Source of the DNA: Candidatus Adlerbacteria bacterium
GTDB taxonomy: Bacteria; Patescibacteriota; Minisyncoccia; Phycocordibacterales; SBAW01
Direction: 5' to 3'
NCBI GenBank assembly: GCA_028286685.1
Contig: JAQBRA010000002.1
Location: 129,073 to 193,072, forward strand
Length of the DNA: 64,000 bases
Under the pieces are notes generated by a model. The model searched no databases, was not told the DNA's origin, and worked only from the letters and a program-made list of their open reading frames with translations. The translations under genes were made by a program, and so were the position numbers. Each line of letters begins with the position of its first letter. Within the stretch, counting starts at the first letter, position 1. Below, one piece after another: positions 2,474-59,356 of this stretch.

Positions 2474-3690
2474 GATTAAAGTTTGTCGGATACCTCCTGC
2501 TCGGAGCGGCGCTGCTTGTGCTGCTTGCAGTCATATACCTAAGCTCCGACCGGAGCCGGATCCCACTCATGTTCTCCCCTACGCAAATCCTGGGAGCCAC
2601 CTGGGGACACTACAAGGAGGAGTACCTTGAGCCCGGCACCAATCGCACGCTCGACAAGCAGCGCGAGAATGTCACCACATCCGAGGGCCAAAGCTACACG
2701 ATGCTCCGGGCCGTATGGCAGGGCGACAAAGAGACCTTTGACGCATCCTGGACGTGGACCAAAGACAACCTGCTGCACGACGATGACTGGCTCTTTGCCT
2801 GGATCTTTGGCAAACGCAGCGACGGCTCTTACGGCGTCTTGGCAGAGCGCGGCGGCAATTCGACCGCAAGCGATGCAGACCAGGATATCGCGCTCGCGCT
2901 CATATTCGCCTACGCGCGCTGGCAGGACCCGGCCTACATAGGAGAGGCGCGCCGCATACTCGACGATATCTGGGAGAAAGAAGTGATCATGATACAGGGA
3001 AAGCCCTATCTCGCCGCCAATGATCTTGAGAAATTTTCCTCCTCTGAAACGGCGATCATCAACCCTTCTTATTTGGCTCCGTACGCGTACCGGATATTTG
3101 CGGTTGTTGACTCCAATCATGCCTGGGAAGGCTTGATCGACACGTCCTACGATGTTATCGGGCGATCGATCGAGCTGCCGCTTGGCGCACCGGAAAGCGC
3201 GGGGCTTGCACCGGACTGGGTGCGCATCAACAAGGCAACCGGCGAGCTTACGCCAACTGGCGGGGACTTGACCACCAACTTCGGCTACGACGCGCTGCGC
3301 ATGCCTTGGCGCCTTGCGCTCGATTACCAATGGAACAAGGAAGAACGCGCCCGCGAGACGCTCTCCCGCATGAGCTTCCTCTCGCGGCAATGGAAAGAGC
3401 GCGGCACGCTCAGCACTACCTACAGTCACGACGGCACAGTCTTGGGCGACTACGAGACCCCCGCCTTCTACGGCGGAGTTATCGGCTACTTTATAGTCGC
3501 GGACAAGGCGGCAGCGAGAAACGTCTATGAGCAGAAACTCGGAAGCCTCTACAATCCGGATACCAACGACTGGAAGCAGCGCCTTTCCTATTACGACGAT
3601 AACTGGGCCTGGTTCGGCATCGGACTCTATCACAACCTCCTCCCCAATCTTTCCGACAATTTGCCGGCAAGCGCTTTCCTGACGCCTTAA
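2470..3690 (+). CDS. glycoside hydrolase family 8 endoglucanase (BcsZ-like), N-terminally membrane anchored
   Basis: ORF track. The SEGQSYTML ... ASDADQDIALALIFA stretch matches the GH8 signature. Its start overlaps the upstream stop (ATGA). Confidence 0.85.
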   Translation: MRLKFVGYLLLGAALLVLLAVIYLSSDRSRIPLMFSPTQILGATWGHYKEEYLEPGTNRTLDKQRENVTTSEGQSYTMLRAVWQGDKETFDASWTWTKDNLLHDDDWLFAWIFGKRSDGSYGVLAERGGNSTASDADQDIALALIFAYARWQDPAYIGEARRILDDIWEKEVIMIQGKPYLAANDLEKFSSSETAIINPSYLAPYAYRIFAVVDSNHAWEGLIDTSYDVIGRSIELPLGAPESAGLAPDWVRINKATGELTPTGGDLTTNFGYDALRMPWRLALDYQWNKEERARETLSRMSFLSRQWKERGTLSTTYSHDGTVLGDYETPAFYGGVIGYFIVADKAAARNVYEQKLGSLYNPDTNDWKQRLSYYDDNWAWFGIGLYHNLLPNLSDNLPASAFLTP

Positions 3691-5306: not shown

Positions 5307-6819
5307 TACGGTTTTCTGGCAGCTAGGCGGGCTTATGGCGCTCGTCGCGGCACTGGCCTTTTTCTTTTTCTTCCAGCAGTCGATGCGGCTCGACGAGTCG
5401 CAGAGCCTCTGGCAGACGGGGCGCAGCGCCCCGGAGATACTGACTATCGTCGCGCAGGACGTGCACGTGCCGCTCTATCATGAGCTCCTCCATTTCTGGC
5501 GCGTCTTCGTGGGCGACAGCGTTGAGGCGAGCCGGCTCCTGTCGCTGATATTCTACATGGCGTCCATACCGGCGCTCTACTTCCTCGGCCGGATCGCCTA
5601 TGGCCGCCAAGCCGGGCTTTTTGCCGCAACGCTCCTCGCCATATCCCCGTTTATGAATTGGTACGGCAGCGAGATACGCATGTACACGCTGTTTACCTTT
5701 TTGGTGGTACTCAACCAGTACTTCTTTATCCGCATACTCAAGTCAGCCGAAGAGACGAGAGAGAGGACCGAGCGCGCGTGGGCGCTCTACGCGCTCACCG
5801 CCCTCCTGGGCATATTCACACACTACTTCTTCTTCCTAACGCTCGCGGGCCAGGCGCTCTTTTTCGTCCTGCGCCGCGGGCTCTTTCCCCAAGGATCGTT
5901 CAAGAAATTCTTCGGAATCCTGCTCGTACTTGCGGTCATGTTCGCGCCATGGGTGTGGTGGGTCTTCCATCAGGGTCAGGCGAACCAGGCCTCGCCGGTG
6001 CTCCAGAGCCCCACCTCCATCAACTTCTTTAGCGCATTCTCGCAGTTTATCTTCGGATTCCAGACAGACCATCTCAACACCATCGTGCTGTCCCTATGGC
6101 CCATTACGGTGCTTTTGGGCTTCTTGGCGCTGCGCAGAACCCGCGCGCTTCAGCCGGAAACTTTATATTTCATGATCAGCGTATTTCTGTCGATGGCGCT
6201 GGCATTCATCGTAAGCGTGCTCATCGAGCCCGTGTTCGTCTCGCGCTACCTCATCTTTACCGTACCGTCGCTCTATCTCCTTTTGGGGGCACTCATATCG
6301 GCTTACCCGCCGCGCATGGCTTCCTTTGCCCGCTACGCAATAATCGGCCTCATGCTTGCAGGCCTCGCTATCGAAATGTTCAGCAATTCCACCCCGGTCA
6401 AGGAAAACTACCGCGAGGCGGCGCAGTTTCTGACTGAGAATGCGGCGGCGCAGGATATCGTGATACTCTCGGCACCCTTTACCGTCTATCCGGTCGAGTA
6501 CTACTACCGCGGGCCGGCTCCCATTGCTACGCTCCCCAATTGGGACCGCTACGCGTTCGGACCGCTGCCCGCCTATTCCGCAGATGCAATGCCCCAGGAA
6601 GTTACGGATACGACAAAAAATTACCAATACGCATGGCTCCTGCTTTCCTACGACCAGGGCTACGAGGAAGACATGCGTATTTATTTCGATGAGCATTTCG
6701 AGCGCGTCGACATGCGCGAATTCTCTCCGGGACTCGCGCTCTGGGTCTACAAGATACGCTACGACACGCCGCTTGCCGGCGAGGACTTCGTCCCCGGCAC
6801 CACTACCCCAGAGCAATAG
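5296..6819 (+). CDS. GT-C fold glycosyltransferase, GT39/PMT_2 (ArnT/protein-O-mannosyltransferase-like) family
   Basis: ORF track. It is polytopic, with a DE motif in the first loop (RLDESQSLW) and the typical PMT_2 N-terminal ~250 aa. It overlaps the upstream gene by 11 nt. Confidence 0.75.
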   Translation: MRSNTVFWQLGGLMALVAALAFFFFFQQSMRLDESQSLWQTGRSAPEILTIVAQDVHVPLYHELLHFWRVFVGDSVEASRLLSLIFYMASIPALYFLGRIAYGRQAGLFAATLLAISPFMNWYGSEIRMYTLFTFLVVLNQYFFIRILKSAEETRERTERAWALYALTALLGIFTHYFFFLTLAGQALFFVLRRGLFPQGSFKKFFGILLVLAVMFAPWVWWVFHQGQANQASPVLQSPTSINFFSAFSQFIFGFQTDHLNTIVLSLWPITVLLGFLALRRTRALQPETLYFMISVFLSMALAFIVSVLIEPVFVSRYLIFTVPSLYLLLGALISAYPPRMASFARYAIIGLMLAGLAIEMFSNSTPVKENYREAAQFLTENAAAQDIVILSAPFTVYPVEYYYRGPAPIATLPNWDRYAFGPLPAYSADAMPQEVTDTTKNYQYAWLLLSYDQGYEEDMRIYFDEHFERVDMREFSPGLALWVYKIRYDTPLAGEDFVPGTTTPEQ

Positions 6820-6921: not shown

Positions 6922-8412
6922 TTACTTAACTAGAGAGAGCGCGTACTCGGGCCACCAGGTGCCGGCCGAGGGGCCGCCGTTGCATGCGCCGTCGGATTCG
7001 CCCGGAGTCTTTACCCAGAGATAGGCGTCTATGAGGCTCTGGCCGGTAGCTGCAGACGGACTCTGGCCCGTCTTGCGTCCCCACGGATTGCACCATTCGC
7101 TATTGCCGCCGTTGCCGTTGCGGGCGGTATCGATGACGAAGTGCTTGCCGCCGAGCGCTTGGGACACCTTCGTGCCGTAAGCGGACTCGTCCGATGTCGT
7201 ATTGAAGTTGGACACATTGAGCGAGAAGCCGTCGGCCTTCTGTATGCCCGCCTTCTCTAGCTGCGCAGCCATATCCTTGGCGTCGATCCAGCCCGAGTGG
7301 CCGGCATCGATGTACACTTTTGTATTGCTGTTGCTCTTGAGTATGGAGACTGCCGCGGCGAGCATGTCGGCGCGCTCTCGCTGGCCCGCGCCAGAGAGGC
7401 ACGCATTGCCCGCGAGCGCATCAGGCTCGAGTATGACGACTGCCGAGGCCGAGCCAATGCCGCGCGCAAACGCGCCGATCCATTTCGTATAGGCATCCTT
7501 GCTGGAAGATCCTCCCGCAGAATAACCGCCACAGTCGCGGCCTGGAATATTGTAGGCGACTAGGACCGGCGCAGCGCCTTCCTTTTTTGCCGCATTTACC
7601 ACCTGGGCCGCATCGCTCTGCACATCCTGATTCCAGCCGCCAAACCAGGAAGCAGTCGGCTGCGCGGCCAGATAGCTCATTTTCCTGGCATCATCCGGGC
7701 GATTCTGGCTCCACGAGGCTGCCTGTGCTTTTGCAGAAGAATTTGCATTGACGTAGAAGGTCAGGTCTTTGAGCGGATTTTTGCTTACGACCGGCACGGT
7801 AACCTGTTGGGCCGGCTGCGAAGGCATCGGCTGAGACTGCCCTGCGCTCGAGGTTGCCGCTTGCACCGCGCTGGACGTCGCCACAACAGCTGCCACAGGC
7901 GGCACCGGCACGGATGCTTGCCCGTTCTCTACAAAGATATCGACGCTCTTCTGCCCGATGATCGTATCGTTTTGCCGCGCAATGAAGTTTATTTTGTAGG
8001 GACCCGCTCCCTTCCAGTTCCAGCCGGACACGTCCACACCAGACTCCTTGTGGGGCGCATCAGTGTAGCTGTTGTCCATCCAATTCCATGAGCCGCCGTC
8101 CACCTGCCAGAACATCTCATAGGTACCGGGGTCGACGCCGTCTAGAGCGGCCTTAAACGGCTGGGAGCCGCTGAGGCGCGCGTCGTTCTTGGGCCACCAG
8201 GCACTGACGCCGGAGCTTGCCACCGCGGCCTGCGAAACGCTGAGCGATACATTAATTGGCAGCAGGGTGATATTAGTCAGTATGACACCGAGGAATACCG
8301 CCTTGAAGAATCCATAGCGGCGCGCACGCAAGCGGGATGCCGCAGCGGTTGCCGTGCTGATAATTTTATTATTAAGAGCTTTAAGAGAACGTATTTCTTT
8401 TTCTACTTTCAC
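6922..8412 (-). CDS. glycoside hydrolase family 6 (cellulase/cellobiohydrolase-like) with N-terminal beta-sandwich/linker region
   Basis: ORF track. The C-terminal ~300 aa carry GH6 features (VLVAYNIPGRDCGG, ILEPDALAGN, WVKTPGESDG). An N-terminal signal anchor is present. Confidence 0.8.
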   Translation of the reverse strand: MKVEKEIRSLKALNNKIISTATAAASRLRARRYGFFKAVFLGVILTNITLLPINVSLSVSQAAVASSGVSAWWPKNDARLSGSQPFKAALDGVDPGTYEMFWQVDGGSWNWMDNSYTDAPHKESGVDVSGWNWKGAGPYKINFIARQNDTIIGQKSVDIFVENGQASVPVPPVAAVVATSSAVQAATSSAGQSQPMPSQPAQQVTVPVVSKNPLKDLTFYVNANSSAKAQAASWSQNRPDDARKMSYLAAQPTASWFGGWNQDVQSDAAQVVNAAKKEGAAPVLVAYNIPGRDCGGYSAGGSSSKDAYTKWIGAFARGIGSASAVVILEPDALAGNACLSGAGQRERADMLAAAVSILKSNSNTKVYIDAGHSGWIDAKDMAAQLEKAGIQKADGFSLNVSNFNTTSDESAYGTKVSQALGGKHFVIDTARNGNGGNSEWCNPWGRKTGQSPSAATGQSLIDAYLWVKTPGESDGACNGGPSAGTWWPEYALSLVK

Positions 8413-9127: not shown

Positions 9128-9250
9128 TGGCTAATACTATCACCTCTTGTTTTTGCTTTCGGTCAAATCGGCTCGTCAGCGATTCGCTTGCAGTCCTGCC
9201 TCGCGGTTTTGCTGAACGGGACTCGTCGCAGACACAATAAGACGGGACTC

Positions 9251-9289
9251 GGTCACAGATAATTTTGCAGAGCAAAATTATCTGTGACC
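9251..9289. repeat. perfect 18-bp inverted repeat (stem-loop) ggtcacagataattttgc-aga-gcaaaattatctgtgacc
   Basis: Arms at 9251-9268 and 9272-9289 are exact reverse complements. It is preceded by direct repeats cgggactcg (9213-9226 and 9241-9253). Confidence 0.9.
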
Positions 9290-9353
9290 CCGCCTCAGAA
9301 ACGCTTCCCCGGAGCGTTTCTTCCGGCCTTCGAGTCCCCGTTGCCCGGCAACC

Positions 9354-10424: not shown

Positions 10425-10496
10425 AGCGGGGTGGAGCAGTAGTAGCTCGTCAGGCTCATAACCTGAAGGTCGCAGGTGCAATTCCTGCCCCCGCAA
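10425..10496 (+). tRNA. initiator tRNA-fMet (anticodon CAU)
   Basis: AGCGGGGTGGAGCAGTAGTAGCTCGTCAGGCTCATAACCTGAAGGTCGCAGGTGCAATTCCTGCCCCCGCAA is nearly collinear with E. coli tRNA-fMet (CGCGGGGTGGAGCAG...CTCATAA...CCCCCGCAA). Positions 1 and 72 are unpaired (A1/A72). Confidence 0.85.
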
Positions 10497-10567
10497 CACG
10501 AATGAAAGAGTCCCGCACAAGCGGGATTTTTTCGTGTTGCGGGAGAAAGATGCTCAAGCATCTTTCG
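10490..10567. terminator. nested hairpins immediately 3' of tRNA-fMet
   Basis: The outer 13-bp inverted repeat (10490-10502 / 10531-10543) shares its left arm with the tRNA acceptor 3' strand. The inner terminator is tcccgc-acaa-gcggga followed by a T-run (10511-10532). A second 9-bp palindrome gaaagatgc-tcaa-gcatctttc lies at 10546-10567. Confidence 0.65.
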
Positions 10568-10689
10568 TGCAGGAATTGCAGGCCGCAGCGTTGCTGTGCA
10601 TTTGCACAGCCGCGAGGCGGGGTCGCAAGCGAGCTTGGCGACGGCCAAGGTCGACTTGTGACCGATTCCTGACTGGCCTTGGCAACACG

Positions 10690-11283
10690 TTAAATCGCGC
10701 CGAATTCCTCAAATACGCGGCGATACTGGTCTATAGCCGTGCGCGTGTCCCGCTCGGTAAGCTCATACGTCTCGCCGCCGTGCGCCACCTGGTTGCGGAC
10801 CTTGTGCGCCTTCCACGCCAAATCGAGCGTACTCATTTGGAAGGGATTCGCCATCTTAAGCTGATCGCCTATCGAGCTACCCTCGTATCCTGCCTCGGCC
10901 AGGACTACCGCCAGCATAATGTCCGCCTCGAGTATCGCGCGGCGCCAGTCGCTCTGGCTCCCCGAGCTTGCCAGCTCCATGACGCGCCTCCAACGCTCGC
11001 TCTGCGGCGGAGCCGCAACGGTTTCTTCCACATGCACCTGATGCTCTTCCTTGCCATGGAAGCCCTCGTGCTCGACCATAAGGAGCTTTATCTGCGTGTA
11101 TACGATCAAGAGGACAAACAGCAGCGTAATAACCATGCCCCAGATGGCCACCTGCGTAGTGAGAAAATGCAGCCACGAAGGCAGCGTGCCCCACAAATCC
11201 CCGACGCTAAAGCTTCCGAAGAAGTCGTAGACGCGCAGCAGCAGGTACTCAAGATTTAAGAAATGAAATCCCTCTTCTTCCAT
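10690..11283 (-). CDS. hypothetical membrane-anchored protein with C-terminal HEPN-like (R-x4-H) motif
   Basis: ORF track, 197 aa. It has an N-terminal TM helix, and the C-terminal region KAHKVRNQVAHGGETYELTERD contains an Rx4H motif as in HEPN/DUF4145 proteins. It sits next to tRNA-fMet. Confidence 0.55.
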   Translation of the reverse strand: MEEEGFHFLNLEYLLLRVYDFFGSFSVGDLWGTLPSWLHFLTTQVAIWGMVITLLFVLLIVYTQIKLLMVEHEGFHGKEEHQVHVEETVAAPPQSERWRRVMELASSGSQSDWRRAILEADIMLAVVLAEAGYEGSSIGDQLKMANPFQMSTLDLAWKAHKVRNQVAHGGETYELTERDTRTAIDQYRRVFEEFGAI

Positions 11284-38096: not shown

Positions 38097-38113
38097 AGCA
38101 CGTGAGTATAACC

Positions 38114-38190
38114 TAGCGAGTGAGAGAACAAAAACTTGTTTTTGATTCCGAGCGAGCGACGGTTATATGAGACGTCCTCGTGCTCATATA
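38114..38190 (-). repeat. copy 1 of a conserved ~77-nt two-hairpin intergenic element
   Basis: tagcgagtgagagaacaaaaacttgtttttgattccgagcgagcgacggttatatgagacgtcctcgtgctcatata. Two similar copies lie at 42977-43053 and 59280-59356. It sits between the EVE gene stop (38205) and the phosphoesterase start (38096). Confidence 0.8.
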
Positions 38191-38771: not shown

Positions 38772-39983
38772 TTAATTAATTGAGATAGTACGAGTTTCGA
38801 GGGGAACAGCTGCGGGCTGGTTATCTTGGGGTTCGGGCGTGTCTTGCTTGAATATAGAAATCTGTACCTGTGTGTCGCTTACCCATTTAGCATACGGAAT
38901 GAATGCCGGGAATTCGTTGTACGTACCCAGCGTCTCTCCCGGCGATGCATACAGCACTATTTTTTGAAAAAGTGTCACCGTGTCTAGCACAATAGCCTTG
39001 TGCTCAAGCACCACCAGAAGTTTTCCTCCATCGGGCGATAGTTGAATTTTTTGACTGAAATCCCCATAGTCGATCCCTATGCCCAAATTTCTCTTATCAT
39101 TTCCGGAGATATCCGAAACGAAAAGGCTGCAGCCCGATTCGGTGTAGAGGCGTACCCGACACAAGAAAACACGTGAAGCTGTCTTATATTGCTCTTGGAA
39201 ATCATACGCGCTCTCTGCTGTCTCCTGAAAGAAATAAAGAGCCGAGAGAGGGACGGGGCCGCTGGAAAAGACTCTGTACGACTCTTCCGCGATCAGACTG
39301 CATTGTCCGAATATATTCTTTTGTCTTCCCGGACAATCGCTGGTGTCGACCTGACCATTCTGCACTATTACCATCTCCAGGTTTCCGTTTACGACACGAC
39401 CGTAGTGTGCGGTGGTCTGCGACAATTTTTCGAACGTAGTAAATTCGAGACTCCCCTTCAATTCAGGGACATATATGGAGGCTCTATTAACAAACCCTGC
39501 AGCTTTCAACCGCTCATCGTAATAGCGCAGAAAATCCCTAAACGCCGAACTCTCTTCTCCGATAGCAACCGGAGGACTATGCGTAACTGTGGCTATATAT
39601 TCCTTTGTTGTAGTTGTAACAGAAAAAACCCCTCTTTGATAATCATTTGCCCCGCATTCTTTTCCTTCCGGGCATAGATATATATCCTGCTGCTCGGGAA
39701 ATATTTCTTTCCACTCCAGGTTTGCATACAACGGCGGTAGTTGGTTTTCGTTTATCGTTTGGGGTGCCGGGGGGACATGGTGTTTCTCTTGCCACACCAC
39801 CCCTGCCACTATTCCAGCCGCCAACACCAAACCAAGGACAAGGAACGGAATCCATTTTCGCAATACGGAAGGCTGCAGGATGCTTACGGGAGGCTGTTGC
39901 TCTGATGGCGGCATAGGTGGCCCAACTGTAGCAGTTATAGGATAATCCGAAACCCAGTTATCAACTTTGGGTATCGACGACAT
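38772..39983 (-). CDS. hypothetical membrane-anchored protein (island-encoded)
   Basis: ORF track, 403 aa. It has a Pro-rich N-terminus followed by a TM helix. GC is lower than the surroundings. Confidence 0.55.
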   Translation of the reverse strand: MSSIPKVDNWVSDYPITATVGPPMPPSEQQPPVSILQPSVLRKWIPFLVLGLVLAAGIVAGVVWQEKHHVPPAPQTINENQLPPLYANLEWKEIFPEQQDIYLCPEGKECGANDYQRGVFSVTTTTKEYIATVTHSPPVAIGEESSAFRDFLRYYDERLKAAGFVNRASIYVPELKGSLEFTTFEKLSQTTAHYGRVVNGNLEMVIVQNGQVDTSDCPGRQKNIFGQCSLIAEESYRVFSSGPVPLSALYFFQETAESAYDFQEQYKTASRVFLCRVRLYTESGCSLFVSDISGNDKRNLGIGIDYGDFSQKIQLSPDGGKLLVVLEHKAIVLDTVTLFQKIVLYASPGETLGTYNEFPAFIPYAKWVSDTQVQISIFKQDTPEPQDNQPAAVPLETRTISIN

Positions 39984-40001
39984 GCAAAAAGCTCAGTTGC
40001 T

Positions 40002-40562
40002 TCACTTTAAAAGAGTGAGAGTCTTTTCAAAAACAGTTTTTCCTTCTTGGGGGAGATAGGAGTCTTTATAAACACCGCAAACATAGGACTCAGTGCCTGC
40101 AGCGTCCTTGCAATAATCCCAACCCGCGTGTGGCCGAGGAACTCCGGAAGCATAAACATAATTTGTATCCCGAGTAATCTCATCAGGAAAGAAACAAGGA
40201 CCATCTATGCTCGGGTCATTGCAGTCGTTCTTATGCGCATCAAAGTACGCAGCCGGCATTATTTCCAACCGATCAATATTAATTACTCGGGAAGTCTCTT
40301 CGGGGCCACCTAGATACCGGGCGGTTGTCGTCCCTTGCAGGCGCAACCCAAACCATATGACATATTTATTTTCCTCTTGCTTTTCAAGCACGGCGTAGCG
40401 AGTCCAGCTCGAAGGCATCTCGACAGTGAAATTGAATTTACTGTTGTGATACGTACGCTCCGTATGGACAGAGTAAGCGCCTGCCATCTGCGGCACTTTA
40501 TAAAAGAAAAGGGCTCCCCCAATCGCCAGAAGCACAAGTACCCCGATGAGGTATTTATACAT
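40002..40562 (-). CDS. hypothetical membrane-anchored protein (island-encoded)
   Basis: ORF track, 186 aa, with an N-terminal TM helix. Confidence 0.55.
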   Translation of the reverse strand: MYKYLIGVLVLLAIGGALFFYKVPQMAGAYSVHTERTYHNSKFNFTVEMPSSWTRYAVLEKQEENKYVIWFGLRLQGTTTARYLGGPEETSRVINIDRLEIMPAAYFDAHKNDCNDPSIDGPCFFPDEITRDTNYVYASGVPRPHAGWDYCKDAAGTESYVCGVYKDSYLPQEGKTVFEKTLTLLK

Positions 40563-40634
40563 GCCCCAAGAGTAGCACGGGTTAAAATCCTATCGCCATG
40601 GACTCTGAGAACGCTTATTTTTAGCTCAAAAAAT

Positions 40635-40666
40635 GCGGAGAGGGAGGGATTCGGTCACACATAAAA
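40635..40666 (-). repeat. direct repeat A of the tRNA-Ser 3' end (att-like)
   Basis: gcggagagggagggattcg (40635-40653) is identical to the last 19 nt of tRNA-Ser (42465-42483). The adjoining gtcacacataaaa is shared with repeat B. Confidence 0.75.
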
Positions 40667-40772
40667 TACTGCTGTATTTTTGCACGGGTCGGGCTTGGCA
40701 TATTGCAAAACCTGTGTTTTTTCAGTACTCTCACTGCGAACAAGAGTTCTTATGGAAGCAGGGAGTTCCGAC

Positions 40773-41327
40773 ATGAAACAGCAGGATACCGGGGACCGCC
40801 GAAGGCTCGTAGCCGAAGCCGCCCAAAAGCAGCTAACCGACGGCACCTGGCCACAGGTAATGAAAGTGTTCGGATACCAGAATCCGAAAGCGCCGCGAGT
40901 GCCTGACGAGGAATTCGCCCGGCTCAAGGCGCTCTATGAGCAGGCGGCCTGCCCAAACCTGGCGGCATTCGTCGACCTGGTGCGCTTCAAGGAAAAAGAG
41001 CGCGACGTAACGATGTCGTTCAACCTCAGCCTGCGCTTGCGCCTCGCCTCCGGCGCAGATAATGCCGCACTGATCCTCTCCTCCCCCGACATCATGGTCG
41101 GAACGCGCTACGGAATCGAAGGAGCTGCGGTCTGGCTCAAGAACTTTTTCGAAGCGGTACCGGATTCTGCCCCGGAATCAGTCCAATTGATGGACAAGAT
41201 CTTCGGCGAGGCGGTCGAGTTCCTCCAAGGCACGCCGCGCCAAGCGACGCTCGAGGACATGGTCAAGTTTGCGATTACCGGCGAGGGAGATATTTTCGAG
41301 CCCGCTGACAAGCCACTGAAGCACTAA
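40773..41327 (+). CDS. hypothetical protein
   Basis: ORF track 40680-41327 (TTG start). ATG at 40773 is preceded by a GGAG Shine-Dalgarno and is followed by the terminator at 41333. Confidence 0.5.
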   Translation: MKQQDTGDRRRLVAEAAQKQLTDGTWPQVMKVFGYQNPKAPRVPDEEFARLKALYEQAACPNLAAFVDLVRFKEKERDVTMSFNLSLRLRLASGADNAALILSSPDIMVGTRYGIEGAAVWLKNFFEAVPDSAPESVQLMDKIFGEAVEFLQGTPRQATLEDMVKFAITGEGDIFEPADKPLKH

Positions 41328-41332
41328 CACTA

Positions 41333-41371
41333 TGCCGCCGACTCGATAGAGTCGGCGGCATTTTCTTTTTT
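41333..41371 (+). terminator. rho-independent terminator tgccgccgactcGATAgagtcggcggca + T-run
   Basis: A perfect 12-bp stem followed by tttctttttt. Confidence 0.8.
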
Positions 41372-41380
41372 TATACACCC

Positions 41381-41406
41381 AGGGAAGGATTCGGTCACAC
41401 ATAAAA
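41381..41406 (-). repeat. direct repeat B (att-like; tRNA-Ser T-arm fragment plus shared flank)
   Basis: agggaaggattcggtcacacataaaa matches repeat A at 25 of 26 positions. Confidence 0.7.
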
Positions 41407-41414
41407 AATCAAAG

Positions 41415-41449
41415 AAACGGCACGGCCCTGGGGTGGGTCGTGCCGTTTT
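41415..41449 (-). terminator. terminator hairpin aaacggcacg...cgtgccgttt
   Basis: A 10-bp stem with a T-rich 3' side on the minus strand, downstream of the 41476 stop. Confidence 0.6.
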
Positions 41450-41475
41450 GGTTTCTGCCGGGCTTACCTTTAGCC

Positions 41476-41685
41476 CTACTCGTCGTCAGCCGGCTGAGGT
41501 TCGGGTTTGAGGTTCTGCATGACCCATTTGCGGTCTTCCTCTGACAGCTCGCGGGTAATTTGACCCCACATGACATTGGGGTACATGTCCCGCACGATAG
41601 TGCGCAATTGCGTGCCGTCTTTGGCCGCAATGGCGTCCTTGTACATATCCGCCTCAACAGGCGTCGAGTCTCTCGGGCCACTCAT
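41476..41685 (-). CDS. small acidic hypothetical protein (69 aa)
   Basis: Part of ORF track 41476-41793. The internal ATG at 41685 is preceded by a perfect AAGGAGG Shine-Dalgarno sequence 5 nt upstream. Confidence 0.5.
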   Translation of the reverse strand: MSGPRDSTPVEADMYKDAIAAKDGTQLRTIVRDMYPNVMWGQITRELSEEDRKWVMQNLKPEPQPADDE

Positions 41686-41695
41686 AGGTTCCTCC

Positions 41696-42313
41696 TTATG
41701 CGATTTGAATTGAGCGGAAGCGTTGTGCCCCCGTCCACTCATCACCATCGGCCTTCGGGTAGTCGTACCAGCCGCGCGCCGACCAGTTGTCAACTTTGTG
41801 GCAGAACGCAGCCAGTTCGTTCATCACCCGATGCGTTGATGAGTAGTCCTTGTACTCACCCTCGACATAGGTGAAGCCGTTGAGCTGCATTGGCGTCAAC
41901 ACCAAGCCGTATTCCGCGAGCTTGTCCTCACGGAACTTTTTGAACTCTTCCTTAGTCGAAAGACCGTCGCGGTTGGAAACCTGGCCATCCTCGACCAGTA
42001 TCCGCCACGGTTTCTCCAGGTCGTGGAGGAAGAAGACGAGTAGTGCGTCCGAGAGCGAGAACGGTAACGGCCGGCCAAACGCCCTGTCGAAGGCATAGAG
42101 GTGCCGGGCATAGTTCATGCCATCGACCACGTGGTCGATATAGCCGCCATCCCACGTGTGGTGATTATGAGTCGAGCCTCGTGCCCGCTCGAACAGGGCA
42201 CGATGGTCGGCTAAGATACGCTTGCAGATGCTCCCATTTGACTCGTCGATGAGGTCCAGCAGAGCCTCTATCGGGAGATAGTTGAGGGGAATATACGCCT
42301 CTTTCATAGTCAT
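41696..42313 (-). CDS. HD-domain-like hypothetical protein
   Basis: ORF track, 205 aa. H..HH....D and FLHDLEKP motifs suggest an HD phosphohydrolase fold. The start has a GAAAGGG Shine-Dalgarno sequence. Confidence 0.5.
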   Translation of the reverse strand: MTMKEAYIPLNYLPIEALLDLIDESNGSICKRILADHRALFERARGSTHNHHTWDGGYIDHVVDGMNYARHLYAFDRAFGRPLPFSLSDALLVFFLHDLEKPWRILVEDGQVSNRDGLSTKEEFKKFREDKLAEYGLVLTPMQLNGFTYVEGEYKDYSSTHRVMNELAAFCHKVDNWSARGWYDYPKADGDEWTGAQRFRSIQIA

Positions 42314-42464
42314 CCCTTTCTAAAGAACTGCCCGCACTATGCCAAAAATAAGGATAAAAAGAAAGCCGCGGTCCGGCTTTCGAATCCCTCACGCAAAGTG
42401 CCCCACACTTTGCTCCTCTCCGCTAACAAAAATGGCGCCTCATTGGCGCTCATTCTTGTACTAG

Positions 42465-42555
42465 CGGAGAGGGAGGGATTCGAACCCTCGATACGGATAT
42501 TACCCCGTATGGGGGATTAGCAATCCCCTGCTTTCAGCCGCTCAGCCACCTCTCC
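42465..42555 (-). tRNA. tRNA-Ser (anticodon GCU)
   Basis: Reverse complement GGAGAGGTGGCTGAGCGGCTGAAAGCAGGGGATTGCTAATCCCCCATACGGGGTAATATCCGTATCGAGGGTTCGAATCCCTCCCTCTCCG has the long variable arm typical of Ser and anticodon loop TT-GCT-AA. Confidence 0.9.
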
Positions 42556-42972: not shown

Positions 42973-42976
42973 GTCC

Positions 42977-43053
42977 TAACGAGTGAGCGATTAAAAGCTC
43001 GCTTTTAATTCCGAGCGAGTGACGGGCATATGAGACGTCCTCGTGCTCATATG
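42977..43053 (-). repeat. copy 2 of the conserved ~77-nt two-hairpin element
   Basis: taacgagtgagcgattaaaagctcgcttttaattccgagcgagtgacgggcatatgagacgtcctcgtgctcatatg, lying between stop 43087 and start 42972. Confidence 0.8.
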
Positions 43054-48649: not shown

Positions 48650-48721
48650 GGGCGCGTAGCTCAGTGGTAGAGCCGTCGTCTTATACACGACTGGTCGCAG
48701 GTTCGATCCCTGCCGCGCCCA
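48650..48721 (+). tRNA. tRNA-Ile (anticodon UAU)
   Basis: GGGCGCGTAGCTCAGTGGTAGAGCCGTCGTCTTATACACGACTGGTCGCAGGTTCGATCCCTGCCGCGCCCA has a perfect 7-bp acceptor stem and anticodon stem GTCGT/ACGAC with loop CT-TAT-AC. Confidence 0.8.
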
Positions 48722-48864
48722 CAAAAGACACTAGCACCTGCCCTGCGGCAGGTGTTGTGCTTTTGTGGGAGGGGTTTTTCTTATCCACTCATTAAAATTT
48801 AAGGATTAGGTGCTACTATCTAATTTTAGAGATCTCCTGTTCCACTGCATACAGCGAGGCGCCC

Positions 48865-52738: not shown

Positions 52739-53113
52739 GGGGATGCCAGGCTTAGACAATGAGAATGCTTGCTTGATGCGCGAAGTAGCAGTGGGAATCT
52801 GCTTAAAAATATCCCAAAACATAACTGCAAAAACAGTTGCATCGCCGTACTTTTCGGCGAACCAGTTCGCTTTCGCTTACGCCAAAGCGTAACTGGCATC
52901 CTCCTATCCTCGCCTGATGGATAGGTCCGGGTGTTATAAACCGGGCTATAGCTGGTGGCCGTAATCCATCCTCCAGCCGAACAATGGATTTGCAGATATA
53001 CAGTATTTGGTTTGCTTTACAGCTGTATACCTAAAGAAACTCAAAGCAAACTACACTTCGTAGAAGCTCTCGCAGCACCTTATTGCACGGCGGTTCAATT
53101 CCGCCCATCTCCA
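52739..53113 (+). ncRNA. ssrA: tmRNA (ssrA), one-piece
   Basis: The 5' GGGGATGCCAGGCTTAGACAA pairs with the 3' ...GGCGG-TTCAATT-CCGCC-CATCTCC-A, giving a T-arm plus 7-bp acceptor stem with one G-U. A tag-like frame GCA AAA ... GCC AAA GCG TAA (52827-52892) encodes AKTVASPYFSANQFAFAYAKA. It lies downstream of smpB. Confidence 0.6.
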
Positions 53114-53125
53114 CAAGTAGCACAG

Positions 53126-53145: not shown

Positions 53146-53273
53146 GTGCTACTTGTGGAAGAAATGGGAGCAAGCGAAGCTTGCGGCGGAATTGAACGGG
53201 CGCAGCGATGTTTTGCACTGGCAAAACCGCGAGCCGGGGTCGCGAGCGACTTTGCTGACGAGCAAAGTCGACT

Positions 53274-53297
53274 GGTGACTCAATCGCCCATCTCCAC
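53274..53297 (+). repeat. degenerate direct repeat of the ssrA 3' end (att-like)
   Basis: ggtgactcaatcgcccatctccac is compared with the ssrA 3' end ggcggttcaattccgcccatctccac. It is followed by a hairpin gcgcccaCTTtgggcgt plus a T-run (53312-53337). Confidence 0.6.
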
Positions 53298-53357
53298 CTG
53301 TTAAAACATTAGCGCCCACTTTGGGCGTTTTTGTTTTACAAGAGCTATTTACGCAGT

Positions 53358-53922: not shown

Positions 53923-54366
53923 TTATTTTTTCTTTGCTTTCTTCTGCTCGAAGTTCTTTACATGCTCGTGGTACTGGTGATAATCGGCGGTAAGCTCCTC
54001 CCCTTTTTTAATTGCGCGAGCGGTAACAAACACCTCGCCATCGTTCTTCGTTACCATGTTCGCCTTCTTGGAGTGATTTAAAAAGTACGACTTGTCTATC
54101 GCATCCATGCCGTAGTCGGGCACGAAATACACGCCATCCTGCAGCGCGCAAAAATCGCGCACGAGCTGCTTGCTCTCCTCAGGCGCGTCGCTCGCCTCAA
54201 GCTCTACCTCCGGAATCTCGAGCACATCCCCGCCTGGGTCGCAGTGCTTAAACGGGTCAACGCCTTTGGGTATCGGCCGTATGGCGACCACCCCTACCCC
54301 GTGGCGCGTAACGGCAAGCCGGCAATAGACGTCATTGAGCGATTTTAAAAATTGCTTCTTGTTCAT
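53923..54366 (-). CDS. SET-domain protein (putative protein-lysine methyltransferase)
   Basis: ORF track, 147 aa. The RHGVGVVA (GxG), FLNHSKKAN (NHSxxxN) and GEELTADY (ELTxDY) motifs occur in SET-domain order, and the C-terminus is Lys-rich. Confidence 0.7.
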   Translation of the reverse strand: MNKKQFLKSLNDVYCRLAVTRHGVGVVAIRPIPKGVDPFKHCDPGGDVLEIPEVELEASDAPEESKQLVRDFCALQDGVYFVPDYGMDAIDKSYFLNHSKKANMVTKNDGEVFVTARAIKKGEELTADYHQYHEHVKNFEQKKAKKK

Positions 54367-59279: not shown

Positions 59280-59356
59280 TAGCGAGTGAGAGAATAAAAG
59301 CGCGGCTTTAGTTCCGAGCGAGTGACGACCATATGAGACGTACTCGTGCTCATATG
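59280..59356 (-). repeat. copy 3 of the conserved ~77-nt two-hairpin element
   Basis: tagcgagtgagagaataaaagcgcggctttagttccgagcgagtgacgaccatatgagacgtactcgtgctcatatg, lying between stop 59363 and start 59275. Confidence 0.8.

Follow-up and report, generated by a model that had tools for sequence, protein, structure and literature searches.

The 3' end of a tRNA-Ser(GCU) gene in a Candidatus Adlerbacteria bacterium recurs twice along the same contig (JAQBRA010000002.1), which raises the question of whether these repeats are scars of integrating elements or parts of something else. The window, by which we mean the whole stretch of 64,000 nucleotides that was analysed, holds the tRNA gene and two repeats of its end, copy A and copy B. 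The initial annotation read them as nested att-like sites left by two tandem integrations into the tRNA gene, with a small island enclosed by each. We consider it probable that copies A and B are instead the ends of a conserved, structured module that is linked to tRNA and transfer-messenger RNA (tmRNA) genes in Patescibacteria, a group of tiny uncultured bacteria, and that this module is transcribed, duplicative and a hot spot of recombination. The reading as a double nested integrase island is mostly wrong in mechanism and in boundaries, and right in recognizing a recombination-prone system of repeats derived from a tRNA.

The repeats themselves were borne out. The final 19 nt of tRNA-Ser, GCGGAGAGGGAGGGATTCG on the plus strand, occur exactly twice in the window, at 42464-42482 within the gene and at 40635-40653 in copy A (19 of 19 positions identical), where 0.04 occurrences are expected by chance. 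The partial second copy at 41381-41393 and the flank that it has in common with copy A were found as well: GGATTCGGTCACACATAAAA is common exactly to both copies over 20 nt (40647-40666 and 41387-41406; 0 expected), and over 26 nt the copies are 96% identical (25/26). The tRNA-derived part of copy B is truncated to 13 nt with one mismatch, so that 12 of 13 positions are identical to the tRNA end. The repeats run from the T-loop (C56) to the end of the tRNA in direct orientation. Their description as non-random, direct, tRNA-derived and att-like therefore stands, whereas that of a double integrase scar with islands does not. The 13-nt flank gtcacacataaaa, which had been taken for the arm of an integrated element, proved to be the 3' strand of a conserved hairpin, here called hp2, that is found behind about 20 tRNA species and tmRNA, at 44 other loci and at three more places in the window. 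A T-arm-like fragment had also been reported at 42374-42389. It is real, but its extent was understated, as the actual inverted copy at 42379-42423 covers the final 21 nt of tRNA-Ser in two blocks of 12 and 9 nt, all matching. On the plus strand these blocks are 42379-42390 (TTCGAATCCCTC) and 42415-42423 (CCTCTCCGC), separated by a 24-nt hairpin (42391-42414) at the junction of acceptor and T-stem. An inverted copy of the tRNA end is foreign to integrase scars, which argues against an integration footprint.

Read in the sense of the tRNA, the unit to which these pieces belong has the order tRNA, spacer or terminator hairpin, T', hp1, hp2 and T. T' is an inverted copy of the final 4-21 nt of the neighbouring tRNA. 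hp1 has the form A-GCC-GGA-(short hairpin)-GAG-GCG, in which the short hairpin sits within a 3-bp helix with a GGA/GA internal loop, and hp2 is a long A/U-rich hairpin with a conserved foot, GGUCGC...GUGACC, whose last C is optional. T takes one of two forms, either 19 nt from the T-loop C56 to just beyond the discriminator, or the last 3-5 nt of the tRNA and the first bases of the trailer. At the tRNA-Ser locus, the final 19-21 nt of the tRNA are the source sequence for both T and T'. Most units are about 110-150 nt long and have no cargo. Pairing of T' with T folds the unit into a three- or four-way junction, the closing helix of which reproduces the acceptor/T-arm of the neighbouring tRNA. 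For T, the longest match to the tRNA of the same unit is 8.5 nt at the median, and for T' 11.5 nt, compared with 5 and 6 nt to other tRNAs. We also asked whether T' might repeat the 5' half of the tRNA in direct orientation, so that the unit would be a degenerate second tRNA whose T-loop contains the core, and rejected this because T' is the reverse complement of the 3' half. The T-loops of tRNA-Met (TGCAATT) and tmRNA (TTCAATT) are not palindromic and the matching T' segments read AATTGCA and AATTGAA, which proves that T' repeats the 3' half in inverted orientation.

The two hairpins are conserved as structures. A covariance model (CM) built from hp1 and hp2 gave 66 matches at E<=0.001, and in their alignment 98.2% of the cells are paired and 17 of the 23 pairs carry compensatory changes on both sides. 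The covariation score was 0.459, compared with 0.137 in shuffles and at most 0.084 in slid controls. Five units folded independently gave the same architecture with z-scores of -5.3 to -7.4, and one module folded on both strands was more stable in the sense than in the antisense orientation. On the tRNA-sense strand, 59 of 63 sequences have G.U as the fifth pair of hp2, which would read A.C on the opposite strand. A known RNA family was rejected as the identity of the module, as Rfam 15 gave no match to it either at the gathering score or at E<=10, and literature searches on tRNA-linked repeats, on miniature inverted-repeat transposable elements (MITE) and repetitive extragenic palindromic (REP) sequences, and on structured RNAs in Patescibacteria found the element nowhere described. 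A report on group I introns in tRNAs (PMC13011429) concerns introns of the anticodon loop and is unrelated to the module. The module appears to be undescribed and phylum-wide.

Two relatives carry the tRNA-Ser-type unit in a compact and gene-free form. One of them (L014) is syntenic with the window, with M10 peptidase and VOC genes that are 76% identical and a matching start of the EVE gene; its unit of about 150 nt consists of an inverted tRNA-Ser end, two hairpins and a direct tRNA-Ser end. The other (L046) is likewise syntenic. An alignment of the compact units with the window on the T' side (42360-42432) and on the copy-A side (40625-40712) showed that the two window pieces are halves of one unit, from which about 15 nt of hp1 and of the hp2 foot were lost at the split. 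Both break points lie in hp1, at about 40697 and 42371, and not at the tRNA end and copy A, where the island boundaries had been placed. Therefore, about 1.68 kb (~40697-42371) is wedged inside hp1. As judged by alignment with the compact, gene-free orthologs, the tRNA-Ser copy is a single unit broken by this segment. Copy B, a remnant of a second unit, sits between two terminators. We also compared relatives for an empty site. In a more distant relative (L065), tRNA-Ser directly adjoins the 191-aa gene that lies between copies A and B in the window, without repeats, and in L014 and L046 copy A adjoins a different variable slot; in none of these three relatives is the tRNA joined to the flank beyond copy A. 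In L063, the tRNA-Ser end seemed to recur in inverted orientation at a distance of 2.4 kb, but an inversion between the two was rejected because the 10-mer concerned is only the palindromic T-loop. The same locus has, downstream of tRNA-Ser(GCU), a direct repeat of about 40 nt (GACTTTTGTRTCGGTAGACC...; ~3385-3425 and ~5748-5790) around the segment with the 191-aa ortholog, and this repeat is unrelated to the module.

We scanned a pattern specific to hp2 (GCAAAAA-N10-TTTTATGTGTGAC) across 185,579 species genomes and compared the loci of relatives as 8-kb stretches. The pattern occurs at 44 genome loci, where about one is expected by chance as estimated from the size of the collection. All 44 are labelled Patescibacteria or unclassified, and the module is restricted to metagenome-assembled genomes of the Patescibacteria type. 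The hp2-specific pattern had no match in viral contigs. A phage-borne origin was rejected: a looser core pattern gave six viral matches, of which five are chance matches and the sixth, in a contig labelled viral (L068), has cellular neighbours. A co-oriented tRNA ends 38-280 nt upstream of 35 of 49 hp2 instances, and a tRNA or tmRNA lies no more than 400 nt upstream of 46 of the 65 CM matches. The usual distance of the hp2 pattern from the tRNA or tmRNA that it follows is 38-130 nt. Pattern and model matches together cover about 20 anticodons (Lys, Ile(tat), Val, Arg, Leu, Ser, Glu, Tyr, Thr, Asp, Cys, Trp and Met) as well as tmRNA. A 20-mer across the junction of hp2 and T matches two metagenome contigs, L014 and L015, the second of which has the same hairpins between ends that both copy the 3' end of the adjoining tRNA-Tyr. 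Eight tRNA species of different genomes are followed by 62-nt cores that are at least 95% identical, and each has a T and T' of its own. The tmRNA genes of L016 and L036 have no module. Units form tandem arrays at four loci (L010, L037, L048 and L068), and at three others (L023, L042 and L050) a unit lies between two tRNAs of one cluster and is therefore very probably transcribed there. Between relatives the module is about 84% identical compared with 67-76% for coding DNA, with compensatory changes kept across orthologous loci, which argues for a continuing function in place.

Two further observations concern where units are found. Among about 50 module loci, eight are no more than about 400 nt from a contig end (L014, L017, L022, L028, L051, L055, L056 and L068), suggesting that the units, or strain variation at the units, break metagenome assemblies. 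One locus (L035; 2021-3623 and 3800-4800) carries an array of units with tRNA-Glu-like ends, with no tRNA within 8 kb, and the array adjoins two open reading frames (ORFs), of which one resembles a nucleotidyltransferase and the other a partner protein, and which may form a defence pair.

The window contains four modules (Table 1), behind tRNA-Asp, tRNA-Met, tmRNA and tRNA-Ser, so that four of its nine tRNA and tmRNA genes are occupied. A CM scan of the window with filters off returned the first three as complete units and, at copy A, hp2 alone. T and T' of the three complete units derive from tRNA-Asp, tRNA-Met and tmRNA, respectively, and the four copies have four different hp2 sequences. 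The tRNA-Ser, tRNA-Met and tmRNA units each have a hairpin inserted in T' between the acceptor part and the T-stem part. A strong terminator (53311-53329) follows T of the tmRNA module. The core is absent behind the two tRNA-Thr genes, the other tRNA-Met and tRNA-Ile(tat) of the window. In the region of tRNA-Ile(UAU) (48650-48790), which has no core, the terminator hairpin takes in 5 nt of the tRNA 3' end (CCCAC...GTGGG); tRNA terminators here thus seem to have a short T'-like pairing in their native state. Directly downstream of two of the modules are genes that look accessory, one for a glycosyl hydrolase family 6 protein (6922-8412, tRNA-Asp unit) and one for a SET-domain protein (53923-54366, tmRNA unit).

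Table 1. Features of the four modules and of the genes around the tRNA-Ser unit, in window positions.
Feature	Position	Strand	Evidence
Complete module behind tRNA-Asp (T', hp1, hp2, 12-nt T)	9240-9352 (CM 9251-9327)	minus	CM 37.9 bits; fold z -7.4
Complete module behind tRNA-Met (10425-10497), T' with hairpin insert	10541-10690 (CM 10582-10663)	plus	CM 26-35 bits; fold z -6.5
Complete module behind tmRNA (52739-53114), T matches tmRNA 3' end	53156-53299 (CM 53220-53280)	plus	CM 23.3 bits; fold z -5.3
tRNA-Ser(GCU)	42464-42555	minus	ARAGORN; Rfam RF00005, 58.7 bits
Small hairpin and T-run in the 40-nt spacer after tRNA-Ser; first terminator-like site	42435-42449	minus	
T' (inverted copy of tRNA-Ser final 21 nt)	42379-42423	minus	inverted-repeat search; aligns with T' of L014 and L046
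hp1 5' remnant AGCCGGA (42372-42378), now within a terminator-like hairpin; left break ~42371/42372	42361-42381	minus	
hp1 remnant GCCCGAC (40689-40695) and hp2 (40654-40687); right break ~40696/40697	40654-40695	minus	CM 40656-40686, 31.9 bits; alignment
Copy A (T, direct copy of tRNA-Ser final 19 nt)	40635-40653	minus	exact match
Copy B (hp2 3' strand 41394-41406 and truncated T 41381-41393)	41381-41406	minus	second-unit remnant
205-aa ORF, predicted HD-domain fold closest to YhaM 3'-5' exoribonuclease	41696-42313	minus	homologs, AF2 model, Foldseek
70-aa acidic ORF	41476-41688	minus	ORF list
Terminator-like hairpin after 70-aa ORF	41415-41448	minus	inverted-repeat search
184/191-aa ORF	40773-41327	plus	100% identical to a Candidatus Adlerbacteria protein
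Terminator of 191-aa gene, hairpin GCCGCCGACTC..GAGTCGGCGGC	41332-41361	plus	same hairpin at orthologous loci L060 and L065
Two ORFs of low GC (403 and 186 aa), both with a hydrophobic segment at the N-terminus; outside the module	38772-40562	minus	

The genes enclosed between the halves of the tRNA-Ser unit look native and not imported, as the family of the 205-aa protein is widespread, the 191-aa gene is a conserved neighbour of tRNA-Ser and GC content is normal. More than 850 homologs of the 205-aa ORF, with identities of 70-89%, are spread over Patescibacteria in varied contexts. This ORF had been labelled HD-like, a label that holds at the level of the fold, whereas Pfam HD models did not match; PHROG and the other Pfam and NCBIfam families gave no match either. 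The best Foldseek match of its AF2 model (pLDDT 76.6) is YhaM (9h3f_A, E 7.5e-4, TM 0.57), followed by Rel and SAMHD1, and H51, H97, D98 and D175 are among the invariant columns of 31 homologs. According to the predicted structure, the protein is an HD fold with conserved H...HD...D residues, and for a YhaM-like HD protein a role in trimming RNA 3' ends is conceivable. The protein family is highly conserved in Patescibacteria, and its genes are often found no more than about 2 kb from a tRNA or tmRNA gene, namely tRNA-Glu (L001, L004), tRNA-Gln (L003) or tmRNA (L010, L011). A link between the HD gene and the module was rejected, as L001-L009 have no CM matches and only L010, with the order tmRNA, two tandem units and HD gene, resembles the window. 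The 70-aa ORF matched no Pfam, PHROG or NCBIfam family. Orthologs of the 191-aa gene are convergent neighbours of tRNA-Ser in distant relatives, directly and without repeats in L065 and with one gene between in L060.

GC content between the repeats is 0.55-0.59, compared with 0.54-0.60 elsewhere in the window. The lower-GC genes beside copy A had been suggested as part of the same acquired region. The dip is real (0.45-0.49 at 38.6-40.6 kb) and the slot is variable; these genes are outside the module, and GC between the repeats is normal. The slot differs in all three relatives, and L014 and L046 carry other genes there and have no counterpart of the low-GC ORFs. No integrase, recombinase or phage gene was found with Pfam, PHROG and NCBIfam among 20 ORFs near the four modules (36-44 kb and around the other modules), and the annotated absence of an integrase gene from the locus was confirmed, with no recombinase match in the ORFs of 36-44 kb. 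The window also contains a 78-nt repeat that is 86% identical between 38112-38189 and 42975-43052, with a 25-nt part of it a third time at 59331-59355. It lies just upstream of three minus-strand start codons (of a metallophosphoesterase, a 115-aa ORF and a 207-aa ORF), contains a hairpin (CATATGAG..CTCATATG) and resembles a shared leader or promoter element, with no Rfam match.

In the reading that we favour, the unit would be transcribed together with its tRNA and would work, or at least persist, as an RNA structure of the sense strand, in which the T':T stem may imitate the acceptor/T-arm of the tRNA. Transcription is suggested by the units inside tRNA clusters and by the strong terminator after T behind tmRNA. 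The unit would spread duplicatively among tRNA loci, deriving T and T' anew from each target, as suggested by near-identical cores behind eight tRNA species and by patchy occupancy. Two candidate ways of copying the target in both orientations are single-strand integration mediated by a hairpin and a template switch at the palindrome of the terminator. The repeated T and hp2 sequences could then serve as a hot spot for tandem duplication and recombination, and such recombination may have placed native genes (those of the HD-like, 70-aa and 191-aa proteins) and the truncated unit of copy B between the two halves of the module; it would also account for the variable neighbourhood. Going further, the core may tentatively be regarded as a new kind of mobile element, which would insert behind tRNA and tmRNA genes in a target-templated way (guide-like or hairpin-mediated), copy the target's 3' end both directly and inverted, thereby build a three-way hairpin with a closing stem that mimics the acceptor/T-arm of the tRNA, have no recombinase of its own and create hot spots of gene shuffling. 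We regard this extension as possible, though doubtful.

Several points weigh against the favoured reading. The RNA role is argued from orientation, operon position and strand-asymmetric pairs, and a single-stranded DNA intermediate would fit all of these too. In the class of units that start from the T-loop, an intrinsic terminator stands between the tRNA and T', and transcription of the unit would therefore need read-through. T' does not pair perfectly with T in several units; the median length of the closing stem without interruption is 5 bp compared with 3 in controls, which is a modest signal, and the two T':T mismatches of L015 would be wobble pairs on the antisense and not on the sense strand. 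Fitting of the CM alignment to the structure favours the pair counts, and the use of an exact hp2 pattern for sampling makes the cores look more identical and restricts what can be said about spread. The L046 unit (5380-5496) has no tRNA-Ser upstream, and a thioredoxin and an Asn/Asp-tRNA synthetase-like gene are found there instead. This unit keeps its T':T pairing, so a unit can persist apart from its tRNA. More than one history could have yielded copy B and placed the 191-aa gene between copies B and A.

We weighed three other explanations. Two successive insertions by tyrosine integrases into the tRNA-Ser 3' end, with copies A and B as displaced attR sites and the integrases later lost, would account for direct repeats that run from C56 to the tRNA end, as in integrase sites of the T-loop class, and for the variable slot beside copy A. 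The terminator of the 191-aa gene directly adjoins copy B, and in L065 this gene is the direct neighbour of tRNA-Ser; therefore, the interval from the tRNA to copy B behaves like an insertion between old neighbours. However, the flank of both copies is a hairpin conserved behind about 20 other tRNA species, the inverted T' belongs to the same unit, and the compact unit of relatives is intact and empty, with the break points of the window inside hp1. The tested ORFs include no integrase or phage-like gene, GC is normal and the cargo genes look native. Copy A, the outermost, is also the best preserved, which is the opposite of simple layering. We therefore consider this origin improbable. Less probable by far is that the repeats are local debris without function, made by slippage or template switching at terminator palindromes and without common origin between loci. 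Terminator stems of core-less tRNAs do reach 5 nt into the tRNA, and palindrome extension could therefore create short T' segments, yet the 62-nt core is conserved across more than 44 genomes with covariation and with junction-specific sequence conservation, and the module is about 84% identical where the coding DNA of relatives is 67-76% identical. We regard this explanation as extremely unlikely.

The module could also be the attachment region of small non-autonomous integrative elements that are recognized as folded single-stranded DNA by a recombinase or HUH enzyme acting in trans, in which case the RNA structure would be incidental. By analogy with the CTX phage hairpin, which mimics dif, or with folded integron attC sites, the T':T stem would imitate the 3' end of a tRNA gene in its double-stranded form, and the order direct, spacer, inverted, loop, direct is the outcome of hairpin-mediated single-strand integration in the known CTX model. 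The T'-hp1-hp2-T shape resembles T-shaped terminal hairpins, folded DNA tolerates G.T wobble, and tmRNA is targeted in the same way as tRNAs; tandem arrays, gene insertions, a patchy distribution and identical cores behind different tRNAs would fit as well. Against this, the 20 ORFs near the modules include no linked recombinase, Rep or phage gene, the hp2-specific scan of viral contigs was empty, and the looser pattern left only L068 with its cellular neighbours. Such an element would need a T and T' for each tRNA, yet cores are near-identical across eight tRNA species. The genes in the window occupy the "loop" and not the "genome" position of the model, and compensatory changes kept at orthologous loci, with identity above that of flanking coding DNA, point to a function in place. 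Taken together, we judge this explanation to be unlikely, and the reading as a tRNA/tmRNA-linked structured module remains the one that we favour.

Among known systems, the tRNA-linked repeats of E. coli tyrT and their RtT RNA (RF00391) are the functionally nearest, without homology. They are co-oriented units behind a tRNA that each end with about 19 nt of the tRNA 3' end, they form tandem arrays, and their RNA is released from the tRNA transcript. The Patescibacteria module has in common with them its position behind a tRNA, its co-orientation, the 3'-end copy at its end and tandem arrays. It has no similarity to them in sequence or structure and no match to RF00391 at the gathering score or at E<=10, and it adds the inverted T', which the E. 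coli units do not have, the two-hairpin core, the range of about 20 tRNA species and tmRNA, and recurrence across a phylum. The rttR/tyrT locus is mentioned in bioRxiv 10.1101/2024.07.17.603846.

Integrase islands bounded by attL and attR, and their integrase-less derivatives that are mobilized in cis, resemble the module in the direct repeat of a tRNA 3' end from the T-loop or the 3' terminus, the use of tmRNA, tandem accretion and variable genes nearby. They differ in that no integrase was found with the module, its "arm" is a structured, covarying core that recurs across the phylum, the inverted copy of the target is always present and most units are free of cargo. Thus, of the features by which such islands are recognized, the direct repeat is present here, and a recombinase, foreign composition or cargo and an element-specific flank are not. 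CTX attP/dif, integron attC and parvovirus-type T-shaped hairpins likewise have inverted arms that pair into a target-like stem, internal hairpins and a direct-inverted-loop-direct order. In contrast, the arms of the module are copied from the adjoining tRNA, the module is chromosomal, co-oriented with the tRNA and found inside tRNA operons, and no recombinase was found among the 20 neighbouring ORFs. We conclude that the module resembles folded att sites in form only. REP, BIME, REPIN and MITE sequences are also short structured intergenic repeats, often by terminators and breaking assemblies. The module differs from them in its strict linkage to tRNA and tmRNA 3' ends and in T and T' segments that are locus-specific and 4-21 nt long; fixed terminal inverted repeats, target duplications of fixed length and near-identical copies within one genome, by which membership in these families is recognized, are all absent.

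Repeats of tRNA ends are routinely taken as integrase scars that delimit islands, and at this locus that practice would mis-annotate native genes as two islands. The finding also exposes a covarying structured element that is phylum-wide, absent from Rfam and attached to a large share of the tRNA and tmRNA genes in very small genomes in which intergenic DNA is scarce. If the module is a mobile or recombining element, it would represent a testable form of target-copying insertion at tRNA genes and would explain gene shuffling and assembly breaks at these loci. If it acts as an RNA, it would be a new transcript that mimics tRNA and could bear on how tRNA 3' ends are processed in bacteria with reduced sets of RNases.

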